A stretch of 32,000 bases of DNA from Candidatus Saccharimonadota bacterium (lineage in GTDB: Archaea > Micrarchaeota > Micrarchaeia > Micrarchaeales > Micrarchaeaceae), in NCBI GenBank assembly GCA_963698035.1, contig OY969114.1, positions 210,001-242,000 on the forward strand, given 5' to 3'. The position numbers were made by a program, and so were the translations under genes. The notes beneath the pieces are model-generated. The model had not been told where the DNA came from, ran no database searches, and saw only the letters and a program-made list of their open reading frames with translations. How positions within the stretch are numbered: position 1 is the stretch's first letter; every line of letters starts with the position of its first letter. Shown here in pieces: positions 5,439 to 31,703 of the stretch.

Positions 5439-6149
5439 GTCCACGTTCCTGAATATCACTCTGAGGATTGCCCTGCCGTCCCTCAAGGAGGTCAGCTTCC
5501 CGGATCCCCAGACCCTCTTCTTCTCGAAACTCGGCACTTCTATAACCTTGAGGCCTACCCTTGCTGCGCGCACGTGCATTTCGGTCTCAATCCCATAGCC
5601 GGTCTCCGAGAGGCGCAGTCTCCTTATCGCATCCTTTGTGAATGCCTTGTAGCCGTATGCAAGATCGGTGAAGTGAGAGCTATAAAGTAGGTTGACTAAA
5701 AGCACGAATACCTTGTTCCCGAACCGCCTTACCAGAGTTATATCCTCGCTTCCGCCCCCAGTAATGTACCTAGAGCCTGAGCACATGTCGTAACCCGTCT
5801 CTATTCCTGCTATGAGCAGCTTCAGCTCCTCGGGCCTGTGCGAGAGGTCTGCGTCCATCGCGATAAGTATTTTGCCCCGCGCCTCTTTGAACCCTCTGAT
5901 GAGCGCGGCACCCTTGCCTGCGCCCGTAGATATCACCTTCACTCCCATTCTCTTTGCGATACTTGCAGTGCCATCGGCCGAATTGCTGTCAACGACTATT
6001 ATCTCATAGCTGTAGCCCTTCATTACATCCTTTATGCCGGATATCACCCGCTTTATGTTGCCCGCCTCATCTAGCGTCGGTATTACTATGCTGATATAAA
6101 CCCTCCCGGCCAAGATATCACCCCTCCTTGCCATCTTTGGCTGCGACAT
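5427..6149 (-). CDS. Family 2 glycosyltransferase, dolichyl-phosphate sugar synthase-like (Dpm1/AglD-type catalytic domain)
   Basis: 240 aa. It contains ISIVIPTLDEAGNI, EIIVVDSNSADGT and AMDADLSH (DxD), the classic GT2 signatures. There is an alternative ATG at 6134. The 5' end overlaps the upstream gene's 3' end. Confidence 0.8.
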   Translation of the reverse strand: MSQPKMARRGDILAGRVYISIVIPTLDEAGNIKRVISGIKDVMKGYSYEIIVVDSNSADGTASIAKRMGVKVISTGAGKGAALIRGFKEARGKILIAMDADLSHRPEELKLLIAGIETGYDMCSGSRYITGGGSEDITLVRRFGNKVFVLLVNLLYSSHFTDLAYGYKAFTKDAIRRLRLSETGYGIETEMHVRAARVGLKVIEVPSFEKKRVWGSGKLTSLRDGRAILRVIFRNVDLSR

Positions 6150-6945
6150 GCGCTCTCCTCCTCTTTCTTATTATCGCGAAGACTATCATGAATATGATGA
6201 GGAGTATTACCACGAGCGCTATAATGTATGGAAGATATTGAAGGAGCGGGCTCACTGAGGGGGTGCTCGTGTAGAAGCTGAGCACAGACTGTCTGATTGT
6301 TGTGTAGTGCAGTCCGTTTGCATCGTACGAGGCTGACGCGGCTATCCCGTAGGATACCTGCGAGAGCGGGGGATGCGTGAAGGAGAACCCAACTTTCTGC
6401 ATGGCGCCAGGCTGCAGAGCGACGCTCTGGTTTGACGGATATGCGTTGAATTCGGGCGGCAGGAGCATCGCGACGCGGACATTGAGCGTGCTGGATCCCA
6501 GGTTGACCAACGATACGTTTATCGTATTGCCGCTCTGGTTGATTCCGGAGACGTCAACAACGCTCGAAGTGTGATTTACAAAATTTAGGATGCATGGGAA
6601 GAGAACAAAGAATGAACTCGTATCCTGCGAGTAGGCTACAGTAAAACTGCCAGCATAGCTGCCTGGCGTTGAAAAGTTGTTGAAGTAGAACTTCATGGTC
6701 CGATTCTGGCCCGGCGAGATGGACTGGAGCGACTCGGAGCCGTTAAGTGCGGTGCCCCCGGCGAATTTTGGCAGAACGAGCAGGCTTGTTGCGGTCTCGT
6801 TGCCGGAGTTGAGCAGTGAGAAAGTTGTGTAGTTGGAGGCATTGCTGATTACTCCGTTTGAGCACGTCCCTGTAAGGCTCACAGTGCCGGCGCTCGCCAT
6901 TCCAAAGAAGAGCAGCAACGCTGCAAGCGCAAAAATGGTCTTCAT
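6118..6945 (-). CDS. Secreted, C-terminally membrane-anchored glycoprotein with two tandem CARDB-like beta-sandwich repeats
   Basis: Signal peptide MKTIFALAALLLFFGMASAG and C-terminal TM helix plus basic tail (IRKRRRAH). An internal duplication is visible: FSLLNSGNETA...ISPGQNRTMKFYF versus VSLVNLGSSTL...LQPGAMQKVGFSF. Many N-x-S/T sequons. Confidence 0.6.
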   Translation of the reverse strand: MKTIFALAALLLFFGMASAGTVSLTGTCSNGVISNASNYTTFSLLNSGNETATSLLVLPKFAGGTALNGSESLQSISPGQNRTMKFYFNNFSTPGSYAGSFTVAYSQDTSSFFVLFPCILNFVNHTSSVVDVSGINQSGNTINVSLVNLGSSTLNVRVAMLLPPEFNAYPSNQSVALQPGAMQKVGFSFTHPPLSQVSYGIAASASYDANGLHYTTIRQSVLSFYTSTPSVSPLLQYLPYIIALVVILLIIFMIVFAIIRKRRRAHVAAKDGKEG

Positions 6946-8461: not shown

Positions 8462-9661
8462 ATGAAGGAAGAGTACAGCATAAGGAAGGAGCTGAAGAGG
8501 CTCGCGTCTGTGCACGGCTCTGGTACAGAGCTGATAAGCGTATACATACCGCCGGATTTCAACATATTCGAAGAGATAGCGAAGCTTCGGGAGGAGCACG
8601 GCCAGTCCGGCAACATAAAGTCGAAGAGCACGCGCCAGAATGTGCAGGGCGCCCTTGAGAAGATAATGCAGTACCTGAAGCTCTACAAGAGGCCGCCAAA
8701 GAATGGGCTCGCGGTCTTCTGCGGCAACATATCCAGCGTACAGGCAAAGCCGAACATAGAGCTCTTCTCGATGGAACCGACGCAGCCCATAAAGGCAAAC
8801 ATCTACAGGTGCGACTCGGAGTTCCTCCTCGAGCCCATCCTGGCCTTTCTTGAGGCGAAGGAGCTCTACGTACTCGTCGTCATGGACGGCAGGGAGGCCA
8901 CGATCGCACTTCTGAAGGGGGCGCACGTCACCCTGGAGAAGAGGATAAGGTCATTCGCGCACGCTAAGGTGAGGAAGGGGGGGCAGTCTGCCGGGAGGTA
9001 TGAGCGCGCCATATCCGAGAGCATAAACGACTATTATAAAAGCGTTGGAGACTCGATCAACGTGGTCTTCGAGAAGTACGGCTTCAGGATAAGCGGGCTC
9101 GTAGTGGGCGGGCCGGGCCCGGCCAAGGACAACTTCGTCAAGTCAAAGGTACTGAACTACCAGATAAAGGTACTTGGGGTCTTCGATACAGGATACACCG
9201 ACGAGACGATGGGGATAAACGAGCTGCTTGAGCAATCCAAGGAGCTCCTCAAGGAGCAGGCAGCGGTGCGGGAGCGCAAGGTGATGGATAGGTTCCTGAC
9301 CGAGGTGTCGAGGAACGGGCTTGCCACATCAGGATACGAGAACGTAAAGAAGGCGCTGCTCAACAACAACGTAGTGAGATTGATCATAAGCGAGGATGTA
9401 GAGCTCACAGACATCACCTACAGGTGCACAACCTGCAAGGAGGAGTTCTCGGCCGTAGAGAAGGGCAACGCGAGGCAGACAAGGCACCTCGAGGGCGGCT
9501 CGTTAGAGATTGTCAGTGCGACAGACGCGATAGAGGAGCTTATCGAGACCGCAGACAACATGGAGGTGGAGGTCGCCTTTGTGTCGTCGGAGAGCCAGTA
9601 CGGGAAGGAGCTGTTTCTAGGCTTCGGGGGCGTGGCAGCCATACTCAAGTATAAGGCATGA
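8462..9661 (+). CDS. prf1: Peptide chain release factor aRF1
   Basis: 399 aa. NIKS motif (SGNIKSKSTRQN) and GGQ motif (KVRKGGQSAGRYERA). Confidence 0.95.
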   Translation: MKEEYSIRKELKRLASVHGSGTELISVYIPPDFNIFEEIAKLREEHGQSGNIKSKSTRQNVQGALEKIMQYLKLYKRPPKNGLAVFCGNISSVQAKPNIELFSMEPTQPIKANIYRCDSEFLLEPILAFLEAKELYVLVVMDGREATIALLKGAHVTLEKRIRSFAHAKVRKGGQSAGRYERAISESINDYYKSVGDSINVVFEKYGFRISGLVVGGPGPAKDNFVKSKVLNYQIKVLGVFDTGYTDETMGINELLEQSKELLKEQAAVRERKVMDRFLTEVSRNGLATSGYENVKKALLNNNVVRLIISEDVELTDITYRCTTCKEEFSAVEKGNARQTRHLEGGSLEIVSATDAIEELIETADNMEVEVAFVSSESQYGKELFLGFGGVAAILKYKA

Positions 9662-9675
9662 ATTAGGTCGGCTAA

Positions 9676-10227
9676 TCAGCCGAGCTCTGATGCGATGCCG
9701 CACATCGCCAAGAAGGCGCTGTCGCCAGACATGTATAACACGCTTGGGGTTATGACGGTTGTATTTACGGTGCTGTAGTTCAGGAAGAGGCTCGGCTCGC
9801 TCCTGCTAACCGCTATGCAGTTGCTTATCGAGTTGTAGGTATAGTTGTTTATCATGCCGCCTACCCCGTTCTCGAAGACGCAGGTCGTCTGGTTTATCGC
9901 AAAGAAGTCTATCGTGCTGCTGTTCCTGTGGATCTGCACGTTCCCCGTTATCTCCTCTATTACAGAGGAGGCGCACTCTATCGTTGCGCTGACGGCTGTG
10001 CCGTTATACGCGGTCGCGTATATGGCAACGCGCCCGGCGGAGTTGAAGTTGCTCTTGAATGTATTGAAGTCTGCAGTCTTGCCGCTGTGCTGCAGGTAGT
10101 ATGTGGCCACGCCGAGCAGCACCAGAATGGCGATTATTATTCCAATTATGTAGGTGTAGCGCACCCGCCTCTCGGCCTTTTTTGCCTCCTTCTTCTGCGC
10201 GGTAGATTCCTGCTGCTTCCTCTCCAT
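9676..10227 (-). CDS. Type II membrane protein with an uncharacterised four-Cys ectodomain (paralogous to the C-terminus of the upstream ORF)
   Basis: Preferred start is ATG 10227, which forms a TAATG overlap with the upstream stop; the ORF track extends to 10260. Basic N-terminus, one TM helix (YIIGIIIAILVLLGVATYY), then a ~130-aa sequon-rich domain with 4 Cys. Confidence 0.6.
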   Translation of the reverse strand: MERKQQESTAQKKEAKKAERRVRYTYIIGIIIAILVLLGVATYYLQHSGKTADFNTFKSNFNSAGRVAIYATAYNGTAVSATIECASSVIEEITGNVQIHRNSSTIDFFAINQTTCVFENGVGGMINNYTYNSISNCIAVSRSEPSLFLNYSTVNTTVITPSVLYMSGDSAFLAMCGIASELG

Positions 10228-11972
10228 TACTGCACCTTTATGACGGTGTTGAGCTCGCACGCAGGCCCTGAGGCGGCGGTTCCGCTGGCGTAGAGCACGT
10301 GGCCGTAGATGCCCCTGTAGATTATGCTGCTGTTCAGGCTTTCAGTTATAACTATGACGGGCGTGCCATTGGCGAGCAGCTGGTCGAAGCAGTTGGGCTG
10401 CGAGTATATCGAGTTCGAGGAGCTCACGCAGCTGTAATTATCTAACGTAACCATGCTGACCTGCTTGCCGAGGCTGCTCTGCAGGGTCTGCTTCAATGCG
10501 GTGGTGCACTGCAGTATCGACGGCGCTGCGGCGGCTGCGCTGCTGTTATAGGCTATTACGACGCTGGAATGCGAACTCAGCTGGCTGATGAAGCCACTTA
10601 TCGGCAGGAAGCTGTTCGCCTGCTGGGCGTACATGTATTCGAGATAGGAGAGCGCTATGCCGACTACTATTATGATTATGAAGAGCAGCATCCATGCCCT
10701 CTTGGCCCTGCGGTGGAGGTGCACCCTGCCCTTCTTGCGGAGCCTGCGGAAGAGCAGCAGGTATATTAATATGACGATTACTACGACGACTACGAGCGAT
10801 ACCATCAGGATGTATAGAGCCCCCGTAGACAGATTTGCTGATAATGGAGCGGACGAACCGGCCAGGAGCGCGGCCACTATGGGCCCGTCAATCGCCTTTA
10901 TCATGGTGGGACCTGTTATTGGAGTGATGGTGCTCCCTATGCCGCTCTTTACCTGCTCCAGCTTTGCGTATATGCCATTGGAGCTCGATGTGTTTATTCC
11001 GGCAACGAGCTGCGTATTTATCGACTGCTGCAGAAACGCGAGGGCCGCGAGCGCGGGCGGCTCTATCTGGTAGTTTAGCTCCTTGAGCAGCAGCGCAGCG
11101 GTGTTGTTGGCGGCGAGCGAGTGCACCACGTTGTACTGGACGGATAGGACGTTGTAGATGGCGGTGAGATTCCTGTACTGGGCGTTTAGCGTGCTGTTGT
11201 ATGTGGTGGCGTTGAGCCTGAGGTTGTATGAGAGCAGGTCGGCGAAGGTCTTCTGGTATGCAGATAGACTGGACTTCAGGCTAAGGTTGTAGTATTCTGA
11301 CGAAAGTAGGCTTGCATTTGCGGATGTAGCGTTGAACCTGCCGTACTGCTGCCCTATTATGACGTTGAGCTGGACCTTCTCCTGCGGCGCAAGGAACGAG
11401 AGCGCCGCGCCTGTGGCGTTCGCTGCCACCCCTTCTATGCTACCGTTTGATAGGGGCTCGCTCAGAAGGCTCGGCAGCAGCGCCTGTATGTTGTATATCT
11501 GGGACGAATTGAAATTTAGATAGGTGCAGAAGTCGAATATCTGGCAGTACCATGGTGAGCTGCTTGTGGGTATGGACGGGCAGGATTGCTGTATAGCGGG
11601 GTTGAAGCCTGGCGGCGGAGGGAACATTCCGTTGGTCTTCAATATCGCAGCATCGCTCGAGACATTTGCCGCAGCCTGCTGTAGCTTCAGCAGCGACTGG
11701 TAAGCGTTGTTGGGGGTGAACGAGGTCAGCACAGAGTAGTACTCGTTGTAGCTTGCATTTAGGTTGTGATACTGCACCGATAGGTTGCCGATCTGGTAGG
11801 CAAATGCAGAGGAAGGCCCTCCATACGCGTTCATCGCCTTTTTACATATGGGCACGGTCGCACAGGAAAAGCAGCCGTTGAAGGCTGTGCAGGTCGCACC
11901 TGGCTGGTTCAGCCCTGTTAGCTGCAGGCAGCTGCTCAGGTTCTTCGCTGCGGTAACCTCATAGGCATACAT
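10227..11972 (-). CDS. Large surface glycoprotein body: Cys clusters, Tyr-Asn periodic helical region, TM hairpin, C-terminal four-Cys ectodomain. Probably the 3' part of a frameshifted gene.
   Basis: 581-aa ORF with many sequons but no signal peptide of its own. Two TM helices flank a basic loop (RRLRKKGRVHLHRRAKRAW). Protein-like sequence continues in frame upstream of ATG 11972 (AEAWAIATFTPTNATLSQLYNY). Confidence 0.65.
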   Translation of the reverse strand: MYAYEVTAAKNLSSCLQLTGLNQPGATCTAFNGCFSCATVPICKKAMNAYGGPSSAFAYQIGNLSVQYHNLNASYNEYYSVLTSFTPNNAYQSLLKLQQAAANVSSDAAILKTNGMFPPPPGFNPAIQQSCPSIPTSSSPWYCQIFDFCTYLNFNSSQIYNIQALLPSLLSEPLSNGSIEGVAANATGAALSFLAPQEKVQLNVIIGQQYGRFNATSANASLLSSEYYNLSLKSSLSAYQKTFADLLSYNLRLNATTYNSTLNAQYRNLTAIYNVLSVQYNVVHSLAANNTAALLLKELNYQIEPPALAALAFLQQSINTQLVAGINTSSSNGIYAKLEQVKSGIGSTITPITGPTMIKAIDGPIVAALLAGSSAPLSANLSTGALYILMVSLVVVVVIVILIYLLLFRRLRKKGRVHLHRRAKRAWMLLFIIIIVVGIALSYLEYMYAQQANSFLPISGFISQLSSHSSVVIAYNSSAAAAAPSILQCTTALKQTLQSSLGKQVSMVTLDNYSCVSSSNSIYSQPNCFDQLLANGTPVIVITESLNSSIIYRGIYGHVLYASGTAASGPACELNTVIKVQ

Positions 11973-11989
11973 GTAATTATATAGCTGGC

Positions 11990-12298
11990 TCAGCGTAGCG
12001 TTCGTTGGGGTGAAGGTGGCAATCGCCCAGGCCTCAGCGCTGCGTAAGCAGCAGTGTTATTAAGCACGAGCCTGTATCCGTTGGTCTGGTTTATCACCAC
12101 AATCTGGCCGTTCGGCAGCTCCATTATGACGTAGTTGTTGGAGCCCACTGATTCATTGTGAAATGTAGCGGAATTTATGGTGGACTGGTTTATGTACTGG
12201 CTCAGGAAGCCATTGAGGCCCGTGCCCACAGCGTGCGGCTGCAGCGCAATCGTCGAGAACAGCAGCAGGACAGTTAATGCAATATATGGCCTGAACAT
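11990..12298 (-). CDS. Signal-peptide-bearing N-terminal fragment of the same surface glycoprotein (frameshifted)
   Basis: 102 aa with signal peptide MFRPYIALTVLLLFSTIALQP and sequons (NQS, NES, NQT, NNT). The tail RPGRLPPSPQRTLR looks out of frame. See the finding at 11993-12056. Confidence 0.55.
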   Translation of the reverse strand: MFRPYIALTVLLLFSTIALQPHAVGTGLNGFLSQYINQSTINSATFHNESVGSNNYVIMELPNGQIVVINQTNGYRLVLNNTAAYAALRPGRLPPSPQRTLR

Positions 12299-12330: not shown

Positions 12331-12340
12331 TATTTATAAA
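12331..12340 (-). promoter_or_regulatory. TATA-like box for the 12298 operon
   Basis: The minus strand reads tttataaata, 33-42 nt upstream of ATG 12298. Confidence 0.4.
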
Positions 12341-12391
12341 GATTTTTGGATCTTACGGCTTTCGCTAGACGTCATAAAAAGAAAAAGTTAA

Positions 12392-12411
12392 GGGAAGGCA
12401 AATGCCTTCCC
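12392..12411 (-). terminator. Hairpin plus T-tract terminator of the S-layer gene
   Basis: Perfect 9-bp stem GGGAAGGCA-AA-TGCCTTCCC located 26 nt after the S-layer stop. On the transcribed strand it is followed by ttaactttttcttttt. Confidence 0.6.
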
Positions 12412-12436
12412 TTCTGTCTGCCTAATTGCTAGCTGT

Positions 12437-15370
12437 TTAGGTTGTGCTTGCCGCTGCGTAGAGGTCCTGGATGAATGCATTCGCTTCCGCAGTTGTCTGC
12501 GATGCGGAGTATCCTGCTACCAAGATCTTGTTGCCGAACGCCTGTAGATATGTGGTTGAGCCTGTGTAGTTCGACCATGGCACTACCTGCTGGCTGAGCG
12601 TGTTCACGTATCCGCTTCCTATCAGGATCAACGAGCTTGCCGGGTTTGCCTGCGAATCCAGAATCACCAACGGCGTTGTCGTCAGGTTCTTCAGCCAGAC
12701 TGGCTGCAGAGCCGTTGACACCGAAGGTGTTGCTGTCAGGTTGCTTATTCCGGTTATTGTGTAGCCGCTGCTGCCCGATAGTGTTGCCGTTGCAGTTACC
12801 TTAGATATGGTGACGTTGTTGACTCCTGGTATCGACACTGCCTGGCCTACTATGTATGGACCGTACTGCCTCTGTGTAGAGCTGGACGGTGCAGACGAGG
12901 ATGGAGCCACTGCGAAGAGTAGTTGGTCTACTATTGTCGCGTAGTTGATTGTCACTGAGGTTGCACTCTCGGCTGCCAATTGGCTTCCGCGCTCTGTCCT
13001 GAATCCCAACGGTGCGTTGAGGGTCCCGGCGCTTACTAAGGATGTGTACGTCATGTTGTTCCTAGTTCCTGGAGTTCCGCCCTGCGTTCCTACAGATGCA
13101 TTCAACCAGAAGAGTGGGGATGCGCCGCTTCCTGATGTCGCGTTGTAAATCGCGAAGCTCAGGCTGTCGGTTGCTGTGTTGCCAGGTATGGCGTATTCAC
13201 TGACTTTGTAGTTGAAGTACTGCACTGCAGATAGTGGACTGCTTGGAAGAGTTGGGCCTGTCAGTGTGAATGTAGATATCGGCTGGCCATTCTGCTGGTT
13301 GTAGTTGAGGGTCGATCCGGACGCCTGGCTATACGTGGTCTGACCAGATAGCAGGTACTGCACTGTTGGCGATATTGTCTGCAAAGATATTGTGTTTGTT
13401 ACCAAGCTGTTCTGTGGCGCGATTGTCACGGTCAGACCAGGGTATGCAGTGCTGAGAGTTATTGTCGTTATGTTAGTGAAGACCGTGTTCTCGGTAGTGA
13501 CCCCGGCCTTGTAGAATACAGACGCGTTGGTTGCTGATGCAGCACCGTTCGAACCCTTTACAGTTACCGTCAGTGGGTTGTTGGTGTTCACGAAGTTGCC
13601 TGAATCTGCCAGCGTTACTGATATTGTGTTGCCTGTCCCAAGTGGACCGTACAGCGTGTTGGATGCCACAAGGTAGTAAGGTGTCAGGTCGTATATGACC
13701 GTCTGGCTTGTCTGGCCTCCGTAGCTGAATGCGTTGCTTATGCCACTTCCTACTGTCAGGAACTGCGCCGGCTCTGTTACGTTCTGTATGCCACTTGCTG
13801 CCCCTGTAGGCGTTGCGGTGAATGCTGAGTTCACGTTCTTGTATGTTATTGAACCTGTCGAACTTGTCTTGAAGTTCAATGGATCGTAGTTGTTTCCGAG
13901 GTTATCTGTTAGGAACTCCAACTTCCATGCGCTTGGATTACCTATGAACGATAGGGATTGGCCTTGCGTTAGGGTTGTTGGGCTGTTGTTGTATACTAAT
14001 ATACTCTGCAGCTGTGTTTCGTTTCCTGTAGATGAGCTCGTGTTGCCCCATAGAAGGTTTACCTTCCATCCCGGGTCGTACGTCTGGTTGAAGACTTGAC
14101 CGTCCTTCAGCACGAAGACATTGGAGTATATTTGTATCTTTGCATACTTCTGATATGCGTACAATCCTGCGAATGTCTGGCCGACCTTTACGTAGACCTT
14201 TGTTCCTGATATGTTGAATGATTGGGTTGTGTTTTCACCTATCGCTGTTACGTTTACCAGCTTGCCGTTGTAGTACAGGTTTATTGCTGCTGGGCTTGCG
14301 CCGCTGCCGTTAGGCTGACCGATGTCCGTAAGCTGCACCGAGAACTGGCCGTTTGAAGCCGTTACGTTCTGGCCTACGTACACAGTGGTCATCGGCGATA
14401 GCGATGATGCTACCTGCACCTGGCCCCCGTTTTTAACAACAGTTGTTGATGATACGGTTGAGACGCTGTGGGTGCTGTTTGACGCTGTCGCACCTGGTAG
14501 CTTGAACCCGATTATGGTCCAGTTCTGGCCTAGGAATGTGAATGCTGCATTGTTTATTCCGATTACCCCATTCGAGTTGGCGGCTCCTGAAGTGACCGGG
14601 ATTGTCTTTGAGAATGTGACTTGGTATGCTCCGCCTGCACTCATCAGCGCGAAGGCGCCGAGCTGCTGGTTGTATACCGGGAATCCTGTCACCCAGAGAT
14701 TCTCTGTCTCTCCGTACTGGCCGGCGTTGTTCAGAAGGCCTGACTGCTGCGAGTTTGTTATCTGAAGTATGTTGTCGTAGCTGTTCTGCGTGAACGATGT
14801 GAACGATACTCCGCCACCTGTGGTCTTAGTTACAGTAGATACAGGCACTCCTGACGCTGCATAATATGGCGATGGCGCAGGAGATGTGGTCAATGCGAAG
14901 CTCTCTAGATATGCGTAGTTCGAGCTTGTCTGTAGAGCCTTTGTGCTGGCTGGTGATCCGACCTGGATTCCCCTGTTGAGGACCGATCCTATCAGTGCGC
15001 TGAATGAGTAGGATCCCGCTGCGTATGCAGCTCCTGTCTGGTTCAGCCATACCTGCTGGCCCGATATTGTAAGTGCTGATGGGTTTGTTACTGTTACATG
15101 TAGTGCGCTCGCGCTTGCCGCGTTGACCGATGCGGTCACTCCAACGGTTGTGTAAGCAAGGTTGCCTATCGCCGCTGCGATGTTCGCTGCCGCGATCCCG
15201 TCGGTTATCTGCGCCTTTGATCCAACTACTATCTGGACCAATGGTTGACCGCTGCTACCTATTATTGCTACATTCTGGAAGGTTACTGGGCCTGCAAATG
15301 CAAGACCTACTCCTAACAGTGCTGCCCCTGCAGCGACTGCTGCTATTCTCTTTGCGTTTATGGATTTCAT
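12437..15370 (-). CDS. S-layer (surface-layer) glycoprotein
   Basis: 977 aa. The N-terminus MKSINAKRIAAVAAGAALLGVGLAFAG is typical of archaeal S-layer protein leaders. Composition is strongly Ser/Thr/Asn/Gly/Ala/Val-rich and Cys-free. I hand-counted about 22 N-x-S/T sequons. The C-terminal region LILIGSGYVN...ILVAGYSASQTTAEANAFI resembles euryarchaeal S-layer C-termini. A strong terminator follows the gene. Confidence 0.8.
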   Translation of the reverse strand: MKSINAKRIAAVAAGAALLGVGLAFAGPVTFQNVAIIGSSGQPLVQIVVGSKAQITDGIAAANIAAAIGNLAYTTVGVTASVNAASASALHVTVTNPSALTISGQQVWLNQTGAAYAAGSYSFSALIGSVLNRGIQVGSPASTKALQTSSNYAYLESFALTTSPAPSPYYAASGVPVSTVTKTTGGGVSFTSFTQNSYDNILQITNSQQSGLLNNAGQYGETENLWVTGFPVYNQQLGAFALMSAGGAYQVTFSKTIPVTSGAANSNGVIGINNAAFTFLGQNWTIIGFKLPGATASNSTHSVSTVSSTTVVKNGGQVQVASSLSPMTTVYVGQNVTASNGQFSVQLTDIGQPNGSGASPAAINLYYNGKLVNVTAIGENTTQSFNISGTKVYVKVGQTFAGLYAYQKYAKIQIYSNVFVLKDGQVFNQTYDPGWKVNLLWGNTSSSTGNETQLQSILVYNNSPTTLTQGQSLSFIGNPSAWKLEFLTDNLGNNYDPLNFKTSSTGSITYKNVNSAFTATPTGAASGIQNVTEPAQFLTVGSGISNAFSYGGQTSQTVIYDLTPYYLVASNTLYGPLGTGNTISVTLADSGNFVNTNNPLTVTVKGSNGAASATNASVFYKAGVTTENTVFTNITTITLSTAYPGLTVTIAPQNSLVTNTISLQTISPTVQYLLSGQTTYSQASGSTLNYNQQNGQPISTFTLTGPTLPSSPLSAVQYFNYKVSEYAIPGNTATDSLSFAIYNATSGSGASPLFWLNASVGTQGGTPGTRNNMTYTSLVSAGTLNAPLGFRTERGSQLAAESATSVTINYATIVDQLLFAVAPSSSAPSSSTQRQYGPYIVGQAVSIPGVNNVTISKVTATATLSGSSGYTITGISNLTATPSVSTALQPVWLKNLTTTPLVILDSQANPASSLILIGSGYVNTLSQQVVPWSNYTGSTTYLQAFGNKILVAGYSASQTTAEANAFIQDLYAAASTT

Positions 15371-15584: not shown

Positions 15585-15624
15585 TTTCCTGCCAAAAGCC
15601 TTATGTCCTTGCTGTGGTCTTTTG

Positions 15625-17901
15625 ATGGAGGAGCATGAAGAGCGTGAGTTGCGGGAGAAGCTGGAGAGGCTGAAGCAGCAGGAGACCGAAAAGACCCCCC
15701 ATCCAGAGCACGCCGATAGGAAGAGGACCTTCCTTAACAACAGATATACCTTCCTCGCGATAATCTTCGCCATCCTTGTGATAAACGTTGTGTTTAGGGT
15801 AGGCCTGATCAAATATACGGGCTTCTTCGAGCCCGATGGCTTCTTCCATTATGTTGTGATAATGCAGGCTGTAACCCTAAACCATGGGATCGTGCCCATG
15901 AACCAGATCCTGTCGGGCTTCCCGACCCACAATGCGATAACCGAACCGGGAGGTCTCTATTATGTTACAATCTTGCCTTACGCGATCCTCCAGTATTTCG
16001 GGATCAGCTATTATACCATAATGAGGTACATACCGCTTCTCTTCGGCATACTTGACGCGATAGGTGCCTACTTCCTGGCAAAGTACCTTACGCACAGCAG
16101 GGTTGCAGGCCTTCTCGCCATGCTCTTCATAAGCATCTCTAGCGGTGACATAGCTAGGACTGCAGCGCTTGTCTACAGGGGCGACACCTTCGTCACAATC
16201 TTCATACTTATTGCATTCATTATGTTCGTCAAAACGGTGATGGGCAGCGGAAGGCGCTCGTGGATCTACGCGGCCCTGGCAGGGGTCTCCCTTGCAGTGG
16301 CGGAGGCTGTCTGGGGTGGGGCCCCGTTTGGCCTTGTGGCCTTCCTGGCAGCGATAGTCCTATTGACAGTATACGCCTTCATAAAGGCGAACGAGAAGCT
16401 GCTCAAGTCGGCTGTAATACTATCGCTGGGTGTCCTGCTATTCTATGGGATACAGTGGCTCTTCATACTTACAACGATACTCAGGAACGTGCCTACCTTG
16501 GGCAGCATCCACTTCTTCATCTTCTATCTACCGGTGCTGCTCGGATCACTTGCGGCGCTATATCTCGCAAAGAGGAGGCAGCGCTTTGAGGCGATTGCAG
16601 GCACCTGGCAGAGAAGGGCGATTGTGGCGATTGCGCTCCTGGCGCTCGCTATTATAATTATAGTGGTCGCCTTCCCTGGATACATAGGCCAGCTTATAAA
16701 CAGCGGCGGCTCTGGTGGTAGCTCCCTTGGCGTCACCATAGAGGAACTACAGCCACCCACCCTCTCGTTCATCTGGCAGAGCTTCAGTTGGCAGATTGTG
16801 CTCGCACCCCTTGGCGTTGTGCTCTTCCTGCTTCTTGGGAGGAGGATTGTGGACAAGGAGCACTCGATGATGGCGAACATCGCCTTCATAGCGGTGATAG
16901 CCTACTTCATGGTGACACTCTGGCTGCAGCTCAGTGCAATAAGATACAACTCCCTTGTCTCTGCTCCAATAGCGATACTCGCCGCATACTCTGTGTATGC
17001 GATACCAAAGAGCCTTTGGGGCATCAGGTGGCGCTGGCTCATCCTCATACCGATAGCGATATTCGCAATCCTGATAATACTAAACACCATTCAGACGACG
17101 GCCTCCTCGTTCAGCAGCGGGCAGGCAGATGGAATAACCCCGCAGTTCCTGCAAGCGATGGTATGGCTGCGAAACAATACTCCCACAAACGCGACCGTGC
17201 TGGCGCTCTGGCCTGACGGCTCCGTCGTGGAGGGCTGGGCGAACAGGACCAGCCTTATGGACAGCGTCGGAGGGCAAACGCCACAGAAGATATACAACTT
17301 CTCGCAGTGGCTCTTCTCTACGGAGTCGAATGCAACCTACCTTTACGTGGCGGGCAAGCCGCAGTACTTCGTGGTCAGGGGCTACTGGATTTACGAGATA
17401 GGAGGTGTCGCCACGGAGGGCGATATATCAAACTCTACGGCGTACGGCTACGACATGATGAGCTCGCTGAACATACAGAGATCGCAGAATGCTACCGCAT
17501 ACCTGTTCAACTCCAGCGCATACCCGTACTACAGCGCAGAGCTGATAAGCACGCAGTCCCACAACCTGACTGTAGAGGTGCAGGCCTACATTGGCAGCGT
17601 ACTCTCGACAGGGAGGTTCGCGATAAAGAACGTCATCTTCATAAACCAGAGCGGAGGGCCGTATTCGGAGGCGACATCCACCATCGCAAATACCGCCAAC
17701 TACAGCCTGGTGGTCTACTTCAACGGCAGCAGCATAACCGGTGGCGCGATAATCGGGCCGAAGATGCCTATGAGCAACTTCTTCAAGTTCGTGGTGCTCT
17801 GCGACTATTCGGAATGCCCATATGGCGCCAGCAACGTTACAATGCATGTTATCTACCAGAACAGCGACACCAAGATAATAAAGATAAATTACAGCACCTA
17901 G
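15625..17901 (+). CDS. aglB: STT3/AglB-like dolichyl-phosphooligosaccharide-protein glycosyltransferase (oligosaccharyltransferase) with a divergent catalytic motif
   Basis: About 758 aa with ~13 TM helices plus a C-terminal globular domain. The first external loop reads FFEPDGFFHY (acidic D-x-D-type motif). After the last TM comes LWPDGSVVEGWANRTSLMD, where STT3 proteins carry WWDYG...(T)L(V)D. An in-frame TTG lies at 15622. Confidence 0.65.
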   Translation: MEEHEERELREKLERLKQQETEKTPHPEHADRKRTFLNNRYTFLAIIFAILVINVVFRVGLIKYTGFFEPDGFFHYVVIMQAVTLNHGIVPMNQILSGFPTHNAITEPGGLYYVTILPYAILQYFGISYYTIMRYIPLLFGILDAIGAYFLAKYLTHSRVAGLLAMLFISISSGDIARTAALVYRGDTFVTIFILIAFIMFVKTVMGSGRRSWIYAALAGVSLAVAEAVWGGAPFGLVAFLAAIVLLTVYAFIKANEKLLKSAVILSLGVLLFYGIQWLFILTTILRNVPTLGSIHFFIFYLPVLLGSLAALYLAKRRQRFEAIAGTWQRRAIVAIALLALAIIIIVVAFPGYIGQLINSGGSGGSSLGVTIEELQPPTLSFIWQSFSWQIVLAPLGVVLFLLLGRRIVDKEHSMMANIAFIAVIAYFMVTLWLQLSAIRYNSLVSAPIAILAAYSVYAIPKSLWGIRWRWLILIPIAIFAILIILNTIQTTASSFSSGQADGITPQFLQAMVWLRNNTPTNATVLALWPDGSVVEGWANRTSLMDSVGGQTPQKIYNFSQWLFSTESNATYLYVAGKPQYFVVRGYWIYEIGGVATEGDISNSTAYGYDMMSSLNIQRSQNATAYLFNSSAYPYYSAELISTQSHNLTVEVQAYIGSVLSTGRFAIKNVIFINQSGGPYSEATSTIANTANYSLVVYFNGSSITGGAIIGPKMPMSNFFKFVVLCDYSECPYGASNVTMHVIYQNSDTKIIKINYST

Positions 17902-29965: not shown

Positions 29966-30604
29966 TCAGGATGCGGCACTGCTGCGTCTGCCCATTTTTC
30001 TCATTGAGAAGTGGTATATCAGATAGATGACAACCACAAAGACTGCTATTGCGAAGAGCACGACCAGTCCGCTCTTCGCCGAAAGGAAGTAGAACCCGAA
30101 TGCCATCAGCACGACATCCCATATGAAGGTCCCTGCTATCGAGTATGCAAAGAACCTCTTCGGTGCCATCCTCGCGAAGCCTGCGGGGAAGCTCATCCAC
30201 GTCCTTACTATTGGAATCATCCTAGATACGAAGACAGTTGTGTTGCCATTTCTTGCGAACCAGTCGTCGAACCTGTCGAGCGACTCCCTCCTTATGTGGA
30301 AGAGGTGCAGATGCTTGTAGACGACCTCTTTTCCAAGGAAGTAACCTATGTAGTAGTCGATCGCGAGGCCTCCTATACTGCCGAGCAGCGCGGCCGCCAG
30401 TGCAATGTAGAAGTTCATCAGCCCTTTCTGGACAAAGAGCCCCGCAAGGGGCAGCACCACCTCGCTCGGCACCGGCAGGGACGAACCCTCAAGGAGCATC
30501 AGGCCAAATACGGCGAAGTACCCATATAGATGGAAGAGGCTGGTTATCGTCGCGTACGACGCGGTGAAGAGCTGCATGAACGTTGAGACTATGTCGAAAA
30601 GCAA
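29966..30604 (-). CDS. DedA/SNARE-associated family membrane protein
   Basis: 212 aa. Contains FGLMLLEGSSLPVPSEVVLPLAG, typical of DedA. TTG start at 30604, with an alternative ATG at 30577. Confidence 0.8.
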   Translation of the reverse strand: MLFDIVSTFMQLFTASYATITSLFHLYGYFAVFGLMLLEGSSLPVPSEVVLPLAGLFVQKGLMNFYIALAAALLGSIGGLAIDYYIGYFLGKEVVYKHLHLFHIRRESLDRFDDWFARNGNTTVFVSRMIPIVRTWMSFPAGFARMAPKRFFAYSIAGTFIWDVVLMAFGFYFLSAKSGLVVLFAIAVFVVVIYLIYHFSMRKMGRRSSAAS

Positions 30605-30637
30605 TGGAACACCGGCAAGTCTATTTTGCTCGGCTAA

Positions 30638-30645
30638 ATTAAATA
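30638..30645. promoter_or_regulatory. Shared TATA-like box between dedA and pelota
   Basis: attaaata lies 33-40 nt upstream of Pelota ATG 30678 and 34-41 nt upstream of dedA TTG 30604 on the other strand. Confidence 0.4.
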
Positions 30646-30677
30646 CTTTCGATGCACTGCATAATCAAGTGCTGAAG

Positions 30678-31703
30678 ATGAAGGTAGTAAAATTCTATGA
30701 AAGCAGCGGAGCGCTCAAGCTGAGAGCGGACAGCATGGAGGACCTCTGGGCTATACAGAGGATAATCTTCGTGGGCGACCTCGTCAAGTCGGAGAGCGTG
30801 AGGCGTTTCAAGGGCAGCGAGAAGGACACCGGCGAGCTCAAAGACGTAGTGATAAGGCTGAGGGTTGAGAAGACCGAGCTCGACAAGAATGCCGCGCGCC
30901 TGAGGATAATGGGAAAGATAGTGGAGGGGAGACCCCTCGAGTATATCAGGCTGAACAGCTACCACACCCTCAACATAGCGCCCGGTGATACTCTTGAGAT
31001 AACCAAAGTGGAGTGGCACGATTACCTGATACAGGTGATAAAGAACGCGGTGAGGGACTCGAAGAAGCCGAGGCTTGGCATAATAGCGCTCGATGACGAG
31101 AAGGCGCTTCCCGCATACCTCTATGGCTACGGGATCGACTTCAAGGATGAGATATACAGCAGACTAAGCAAGAGGATGAGCCCGAAGGACTTCGCTGAGC
31201 AGCAGGTGAAGTACTTCAACGAGCTTATCAAGCTTGCTGGGGACATGAGCGCCGACATAATAGTGATGGCGGGCCCGGGTTTCACCAAGGACGAGCTGAA
31301 GAAATATGCGGAGACGAAGGGGCTCCTGAAGAAAATCCCGAAGAGGTTTTTCTTCTTCAAGATAAGCAACGTGGAGCGGTCCGGGATCTACGAGCTCATA
31401 AGAAGCGAGGACGTCTCGGAGCTGCTGGAGGGCGAGAGGATAAGACAGGAGTTCAGGCTTATGGCCGAATTCCTTGAAGGGCTTGGCTCGGGAAGGTCAA
31501 AGTCGGGCGAGAAGGAGGTCAAGGAGGCGATAGAGAACTACTCAGCAAAGACGATACTTGTCAATGACTCTGTGCTGAGCGACCAGAAGATGAAGGAGCT
31601 GCTCGCTCTTGCTGAGAAGGCAGGGCTGAAGATAGAGATATTTAACTCCGAGGACGAGCTCGGCAGGCAGCTGCATTCATTCAAGGATGTAGCCTCGATC
31701 TGA
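30678..31703 (+). CDS. pelA: Pelota (Dom34-like mRNA surveillance / ribosome rescue factor)
   Basis: From ATG 30678 the protein begins MKVVKFYESSGALKLRADSMEDLWAIQRIIFVGDLV, a typical Pelota N-terminus. The ORF-track start at 30564 adds 38 non-conserved residues and overlaps dedA. Confidence 0.9.
   Translation: MKVVKFYESSGALKLRADSMEDLWAIQRIIFVGDLVKSESVRRFKGSEKDTGELKDVVIRLRVEKTELDKNAARLRIMGKIVEGRPLEYIRLNSYHTLNIAPGDTLEITKVEWHDYLIQVIKNAVRDSKKPRLGIIALDDEKALPAYLYGYGIDFKDEIYSRLSKRMSPKDFAEQQVKYFNELIKLAGDMSADIIVMAGPGFTKDELKKYAETKGLLKKIPKRFFFFKISNVERSGIYELIRSEDVSELLEGERIRQEFRLMAEFLEGLGSGRSKSGEKEVKEAIENYSAKTILVNDSVLSDQKMKELLALAEKAGLKIEIFNSEDELGRQLHSFKDVASI

Follow-up and report, generated by a model that had tools for sequence, protein, structure and literature searches.

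What holds the surface layer (S-layer) of Micrarchaeota to the cell membrane? In Candidatus Micrarchaeum harzensis the S-layer protein is the most abundant protein, the pseudo-periplasm is 20–25 nm wide, and the anchoring of the S-layer protein is unknown, a second transmembrane (TM) protein being perhaps needed (Gfrerer et al.). Here we consider a locus that bears on this question. It lies in a stretch of 32,000 nucleotides (contig OY969114.1, positions 210,001 to 242,000; referred to below as the window, to which all coordinates are relative) from a genome of Micrarchaeota (DPANN). In the window, the gene of an S-layer protein is followed on the same strand by two genes, here called AB and C, which encode predicted membrane proteins sharing an extracellular domain with four invariant cysteines. 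By its conserved adjacency to the S-layer gene, the AB-C pair is the best available candidate for the S-layer-to-membrane link. The three genes are as follows.

12437–15370, minus strand: S-layer protein gene, 977 aa (PF05124 S_layer_C, E = 1.3e-14; TIGR01564, E = 3.4e-11).
10227–12298, minus strand: gene AB, one gene of ~690 aa, represented here by two open reading frames (ORFs), 11990–12298 (102 aa) and 10227–11972 (581 aa).
9676–10227, minus strand: gene C, 183 aa, with a basic cytoplasmic tail, one TM helix and a four-Cys ectodomain.

An earlier note on this DNA described an operon of three minus-strand ORFs, 11990–12298, 10227–11972 and 9676–10227. All three are present, but the first of them is the signal-peptide and N-terminal part of AB, severed by a 1-nt deletion. 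Homologous proteins (P0001, P0002, P0003 and P0027) are encoded by single ORFs of 688–707 aa spanning both window ORFs. The AB region forms one ORF of 678–787 aa in 13 genomic loci, and all 20 of the other full-length AB copies seen are intact (678–787 aa). The DNA alignment with the related locus L002 places the single absent base at the following site.

12030–12031, minus strand: frameshift site, CC in the window versus CCC in L002; the 1-nt deletion breaks the reading between ...LRP and WAIATF...

The frame of the 581-aa ORF stays open 5' of its ATG, reading ...WAIATFTPTNATLSQLYNYMYAYEV, which matches ...LRPWALSTFAPSNASLSQLYGHMHTYEV of P0001. Because one missing base at 12030–12031 splits AB, the locus is read as two genes, AB (~690 aa) and C (183 aa), and not three. 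Programmed frameshifting at 12030 was considered and rejected, since a slippery heptamer is absent and all other full-length copies are read without a change of frame. The sole independent contig (L001) stops 2 nt before the deletion site, and no other broken gene is visible in the 32 kb. The deletion is either a sequencing or assembly error or the mark of a genuinely inactivated copy. The start codon of C shares 1 nt with the stop codon of AB (TAATG at 10225–10229, an overlap already described in the earlier note), and the two genes are predicted to be translationally coupled.

The C-terminus of AB and the ectodomain of C had been proposed, by eye, to be copies of one four-Cys domain. The relevant features are listed below.

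10230–10628, minus strand: C-terminal four-Cys alpha/beta ectodomain of AB (copy 1), ~130 aa.
10093–10149, minus strand: TM helix of C, within gene C.
9679–10074, minus strand: four-Cys ectodomain of C (copy 2), ~130 aa.

Pairwise alignment with shuffled controls, the check suggested at the time, gave only a marginal result for the window pair. BLASTP yielded E = 0.012 with the TM helix being part of the alignment; for the ectodomains, the score was reached by 73 of 2000 shuffles in Smith–Waterman alignment (z = 2.2) and by 21 of 2000 in semi-global alignment (z = 2.9). At p about 0.01–0.04, the similarity of the two window domains is too weak to decide, and it was the family profiles that proved decisive. 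Comparison of 17 AB C-termini with 22 C ectodomains by hhalign gave a score of 30.5 (P = 1.6e-4) over 113 columns with the four Cys in register. None of 200 column-shuffled controls reached this score (mean 12.4, standard deviation 2.4, maximum 21.6), and the reversed profile scored 13.6. In an exhaustive scan of 1.84e9 proteins, the hidden Markov model (HMM) of the C family matched residues 563–710 of a 717-aa AB-type protein with E = 3e-5. The locus of the latter, L019, shows cross-matches both ways, that is, of its small downstream protein with the AB profile and of its AB with the C profile. When 16 AB C-termini and 16 C proteins are aligned jointly, the four Cys columns are 100% conserved in both types, and a diverse set of 53 C representatives has all four Cys without exception. 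The models of both domains show their secondary structure elements in the same order. By the family profiles, then, the two domains are clearly homologous, beyond chance.

Identity between the two types (AB C-terminus versus C) is ~20% and no higher within one genome (20.0%). The duplication would therefore be ancient and not kept by gene conversion, and C, on this comparison, represents the last module of AB, duplicated long ago and now standing alone. We propose a new family defined by a TM helix and a ~130-aa alpha/beta domain with four invariant Cys and conserved positions F..S..V.I, N, P.I and L..G. The exhaustive search with the C profile (hmmsearch, 1.84 billion representatives) retrieved 140 proteins, counted as clusters at 50% identity, nearly all of them 150–220 aa long. 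The four-Cys module is also reused in other architectures, since the variants P0054 (350 aa), P0135 (294 aa) and P0151 (296 aa) carry, behind the TM helix and ahead of the four-Cys domain, an additional ectodomain of 100–170 aa. P0155, a distant C-like protein, stands alone.

The domain had been described as unrecognised, and this description stands. Scans of every family member against Pfam and NCBIfam produced only sub-threshold, TM-biased matches, e.g. CitMHS and TMEM117. Profile searches of PDB sequences gave no match below E = 0.16; the match at that value, syntaxin Vam3, was rejected as noise. The four-Cys domain of C is modelled as an alpha/beta domain with a predicted local distance difference test score (pLDDT) of 77, and a Foldseek search of the C model against PDB gave nothing below E = 0.046, the top weak matches being generic three-layer alpha/beta folds (von Willebrand factor A, vWA, and caspase-like). 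For the low-confidence AB model (pLDDT 47.6), the lack of a significant Foldseek match in PDB is not informative. The beta-alpha-beta order of elements in the four-Cys domain does resemble vWA, caspase-like and Rossmann-like domains. However, all Foldseek matches have E of at least 0.046 and TM-scores of 0.26–0.34 (0.088 and 0.26, respectively, for the best vWA match), and inspection of the window copy and of the consensus for the family found neither the DxSxS motif of the vWA metal-ion-dependent adhesion site nor the His/Cys catalytic dyad of caspases. Among the compared alpha/beta folds, the four invariant Cys are a feature of this domain only. Identification of the domain as vWA was rejected, as the fold match is not significant and DxSxS is absent.

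The S-layer gene, AB and C are directly adjacent in 12 of the 14 informative Micrarchaeota loci (L002, L003, L005–L009, L011–L013, L015 and L016), where the spacer between the S-layer gene and AB is 128–213 nt. AB and C are adjacent to each other in 15 of 16 loci and 600 nt apart in the exception, L013; their adjacency recurs in L017, L019, L020 and one ENA contig. In the AT-rich distant locus L019 the order S-layer gene-AB-C is kept at ~25% identity of AB or less, and the gene 5' of AB, ending in ...ILVAGYTAQDTIEAGDQFIQAL, is homologous to the C-terminus of the window S-layer protein (phmmer, 1.1e-18). The more distant lineages have the downstream flank, aRF1 and SerRS, replaced by Hjc or AAA_14 and retain AB-C. 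Linkage to S-layer genes in relatives, on which the earlier note had staked its proposal beforehand, is thus found in the 12 Micrarchaeota loci and in L019. One of these contigs, DATJLP010000008.1 (L005), is titled as the bacterium 'Candidatus Acidoferrum sp.' and shows the full synteny of AglB, S-layer gene-AB-C and aRF1-SerRS; it is probably mis-binned.

The region between the S-layer gene and AB contains two further elements, both of which had been noticed in the earlier note.

12376–12413, minus strand: terminator-like element of the S-layer gene, a 10-bp GC-rich hairpin (12413–12390) and a T-rich run.
12331–12340, minus strand: TATA box TTTATAAATA, 42 nt 5' of the AB ATG, promoter of the AB-C unit.

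The hairpin lies just past the S-layer stop codon, and hairpin and T-run are present in about 9 of the 12 related Micrarchaeota loci, with compensatory changes in the stem. Such changes are seen on comparison of 12390–12413 with the intergenic regions of L003, L006, L007 and L008, e.g. GGGAAGGC/GCCTTCCC versus GGGAGGGC/GCCCTCCC, and in the conserved copies a T-rich run always comes next. Such conservation of a hairpin that separates AB-C from the very highly expressed S-layer gene suggests that it functions as a terminator or attenuator. Of the 12 related loci, 10 have a TATA-like box at −33 to −45. This supports the assignment of AB-C to a separate transcription unit with its own TATA promoter past the S-layer terminator.

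The remaining parts of AB are the following.

12230–12298, minus strand: signal peptide of AB, approximately residues 1–23 (hydrophobic segment 1–24), kept in the family alignment.
10812–12229, minus strand: N-terminal ectodomain of AB, comprising a small alpha/beta domain, an 8-Cys cluster with a conserved CxxC, and a sequon-rich region predicted to be helical.
10641–10811, minus strand: TM hairpin of AB, a pair of TM helices joined by the basic loop RRLRKKGRVHLHRRAKRAW.

The TM hairpin had been predicted in the earlier note, and the hydropathy peaks at residues 497–515 and 535–553 do flank this basic loop, which is predicted to be cytoplasmic. The positive-inside rule predicts an extracellular location for the large AB ectodomain and for the four-Cys domain of each protein. 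Conservation across genera extends over the whole N-terminal ectodomain (mean column identity 45%), whose small alpha/beta domain is modelled with pLDDT ~78. The eight conserved Cys include a C-x-S-C motif and PWYC...C. The cluster at approximately 11840–11900 (AB residues 124–152) reads C-L-x-E-T-G-L...C-T-x-x-N-x-C-x-S-C-x-x-V-P-x-C. The extracellular CxxC of this cluster could form structural disulfides or be redox-active.

AB contains 25 N-x-S/T sequons versus 9.7 expected from composition, 21 of the 25 being in the N-terminal ectodomain and none in the TM helices or the loop. C contains six versus 2.7 expected, and the cytoplasmic proteins aRF1 and SerRS contain one each. This enrichment and the even Cys counts fit glycosylated, disulfide-bonded ectodomains in AB and C, with four likely disulfides in the N-terminal ectodomain of AB, in agreement with the glycosylation proposed earlier. 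The accompanying description of a stretch with Tyr-Asn periodicity and sequons applies to the window protein, where the stretch is present; of it the family keeps only the sequons and some Tyr. The helical stalk that the earlier note derived from this stretch did not find support as a coiled coil. The family-averaged hydrophobicity spectrum of AB lacks a 3.5-residue (heptad) peak, and its modest 3.7-residue periodicity at residues 300–410 is reached by 22 of 300 shuffles. The AlphaFold model of AB, poor because the alignment is shallow (four AB proteins from homologue searches), renders the long sequon-rich part as helical at low confidence.

The S-layer protein itself is assigned to the Methanococcales type (PF05123/PF05124, TIGR01564), with scores above the curated cut-offs: 54.7 bits for PF05124 (cut-off 23.9) and 42.5 bits for TIGR01564 (cut-off 25). 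Its single hydrophobic segment, residues 9–27, is the N-terminal signal peptide, and it contains no Cys. The hydropathy and sequence check found no other TM segment and no PGF-type C-terminus, the protein ending in ...DLYAAASTT. Self-anchored archaeal S-layer proteins solve the same attachment problem within the lattice protein, by a C-terminal TM helix, PGF-CTERM/archaeosortase lipidation or a tetrabrachion-type stalk. In contrast, the window protein has neither a TM helix nor a PGF motif and would therefore need a separate partner.

Judged from synteny and topology, a role of AB-C in S-layer anchoring or assembly is plausible, given an S-layer protein that lacks an anchor. The pair fits, by position and topology, the second TM protein envisaged by Gfrerer et al., and therefore tethering or spacing of the S-layer relative to the membrane is ranked first among the readings considered, although at somewhat less than an even chance. 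Under this reading, the paralogous four-Cys domains of AB and C would associate at the outer surface of the cell membrane into a pseudo-symmetric heterodimer, giving a three-helix membrane foot. The AB ectodomain of ~470 residues would project into the 20–25 nm pseudo-periplasm and touch the anchorless S-layer protein, and the complex would tether or space the S-layer, probably at sub-stoichiometric sites.

Several points weigh against tethering. Very small genomes can keep synteny without a functional link. In two loci the S-layer gene and AB are separated by other genes: L010 (3625–7868) carries an IS-type transposase and a 779-aa multi-TM protein, and L004 (1–2276) an AAA ATPase and a PIN gene 5' of AB. 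Both inserts are of mobile or toxin-antitoxin-type genes. As AB-C has a separate promoter, it is not strictly co-expressed with the S-layer gene, and the contact of AB or C with the S-layer protein is putative. The lack of heptad periodicity and the low confidence of the model leave an extended AB stalk unsupported. Finally, according to published data for Ca. M. harzensis, Micr_00293 and Micr_00294 have 1.95 and 1.19 transcripts per million versus 124.8 for the S-layer gene. The mRNAs of these presumed AB and C orthologues (708 and 174 aa; they follow the S-layer gene of A_DKE, and orthology rests on position and length, not on sequence) are therefore 64–105-fold rarer than the S-layer mRNA, which argues against a 1:1 structural partner, i.e. 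a SlaB-like stoichiometric anchor. The A_DKE proteome table has only ~40 A_DKE entries, so that the absence of AB and C from it carries no information, and a literature search for the A_DKE locus tag Micr_00293 found no mention of it.

The low expression fits a reading in which AB-C, rather than a permanent structural tether, is a membrane complex of low abundance to which the S-layer protein is delivered at the membrane surface after secretion, namely a platform for folding, glycosylation or lattice insertion, possibly acting with AglB. The corresponding gene is located on the other side of the S-layer gene.

15622–17901, plus strand: AglB/STT3-like oligosaccharyltransferase gene, divergent from the S-layer gene and part of the conserved neighbourhood.

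This gene is adjacent in 6 of the 14 Micrarchaeota loci and within 1.6–3.3 kb in two more. Its L002 orthologue (757 aa) is tagged PF02516 STT3; the window ORF, called from a TTG start codon, has no Pfam STT3 match in the scan, its best match being TgpA_N at 0.005. The window is rich in envelope and N-glycosylation genes, which include, besides the AglB/STT3-like one, two GT2 genes, a PMT_2-type transferase and a carbamoyltransferase. The helper role is thus in line with the conserved neighbourhood of AglB and S-layer gene-AB-C with its further glycosyltransferases, with the average mRNA levels of the pair, with the conserved CxxC in the AB ectodomain and with the weak Rossmann, vWA or caspase-like fold matches of the membrane-proximal alpha/beta domains. 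On the other hand, no catalytic or chaperone family was detected in Pfam or NCBIfam, the fold matches are not significant (best E = 0.046), and a thiol-disulfide role towards the S-layer protein is unlikely given that the latter lacks Cys. We consider this reading unlikely, although the likeliest of the alternatives to tethering.

Next in rank, and likewise unlikely, is the absence of any functional coupling: AB and C would be unrelated envelope proteins, and their adjacency to the S-layer gene an inherited gene order in a small, compact genome. Consistent with this, aRF1 and SerRS, clearly unrelated in function, flank the pair on its other side with equal synteny, promoter and terminator of AB-C are its own, and L004 and L010 tolerate other genes between the S-layer gene and AB. 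The distant lineages argue the opposite: those that have exchanged the aRF1/SerRS flank for Hjc or AAA_14 nevertheless keep AB-C, and L019 keeps the S-layer gene together with it.

Less probable still is a device for interaction with the host. The glycosylated, disulfide-stabilised ectodomain of AB would extend through the S-layer or alongside it to make contact with the Thermoplasmatales host, which has no wall; AB would serve as adhesin, receptor or bridge former, with C as its membrane partner. The apparent restriction of the family to Micrarchaeota-like symbionts (140 clusters), the large, variable AB ectodomain on a conserved Cys framework, and an expression low enough for sparse contact sites agree with such a role. 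But the ectodomain is conserved across genera at the 45% level given above, whereas host-facing adhesins usually diverge faster, Foldseek detected no adhesin or fusogen fold, and the constant linkage to the S-layer gene would be left unexplained. The boldest version, in which the helical AB ectodomain, locked by disulfides, heavily glycosylated and held in the membrane by the pseudo-dimeric four-Cys foot, traverses the S-layer and, AB-C being far from a passive tether, mediates host membrane contact or the cytoplasmic bridges between ARMAN (archaeal Richmond Mine acidophilic nanoorganisms) and Thermoplasmatales, is very improbable, though, if true, AB-C would be a helical machine for contact or fusion that is new, archaeal and without relation to the known fusogens.

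For the tethering proposal, the closest functional parallel is SlaB, of the SlaA/SlaB system of Sulfolobales (homologue Nmar_1546). The slaB gene, like AB-C, is directly downstream of the gene of the lattice protein. Both SlaB and AB have a Sec signal peptide, a glycosylated ectodomain and a TM anchor, and the lattice partner has no anchor of its own. SlaB holds the lattice 20–30 nm above the membrane, which is the role proposed for AB-C. The two proteins are nevertheless without sequence or fold similarity in Pfam, NCBIfam and PDB sequences. SlaB consists of immunoglobulin-like domains, a long trimeric coiled coil and a single C-terminal TM helix. Unlike it, AB has a Cys-rich ectodomain predicted to be helical and alpha/beta, without heptad periodicity, and a TM hairpin followed by a 130-aa four-Cys outer domain. 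AB also has a small paralogous partner, C, and AB-C has its own promoter and an mRNA level far below that of the lattice gene. The caution of the earlier note, that any analogy to SlaB is functional and not one of homology, was well placed: of the hallmarks of SlaB that were tested, only the gene position is shared, and homology to SlaB, the immunoglobulin-like fold, the coiled coil and the single TM anchor are all lacking. Another comparison is offered by Saci_1846, the third S-layer component of Sulfolobus acidocaldarius, which shows that archaeal S-layers can need extra membrane-side accessory proteins; its genomic arrangement and architecture differ from those of AB-C, and no homology is apparent. 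AB-C is a new, uncharacterised protein pair with a new domain, and most likely an equivalent, without homology, of the known accessory or anchor proteins of S-layers.

Other features of the window touch these genes less directly. The gene adjoining C is the following.

8462–9661: aRF1 gene, 399 aa.

A second gene of the eRF1 fold at 30564–31703 encodes an eRF1_1/eRF1_3 protein of 379 aa, probably Pelota. The segment 24772–26225, with an AbiEii-type toxin gene (6.9e-23) and an adjacent unannotated ORF of 211 aa, has a GC content of 0.466–0.469 versus ~0.52–0.55 in most of the window and is likely a toxin-antitoxin insertion. Two minus-strand ORFs, of 638 aa (5–1921) and 275 aa (6118–6945), have no Pfam match; the latter is kept beside a GT2 gene in L002 too.

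From this analysis come two protein families without annotation and a new extracellular domain with four Cys, for which Pfam and NCBIfam have no model. AB-C appears to be a two-subunit envelope module restricted to Micrarchaeota-like archaea. Attachment of the S-layer in Micrarchaeota is an explicitly open question (Gfrerer et al.), and it extends to Methanococcales-type S-layer proteins that have neither a TM nor a lipid anchor. The locus provides a concrete, conserved two-gene candidate for this role, and one that is testable, as the co-culture and an anti-S-layer antibody already exist.

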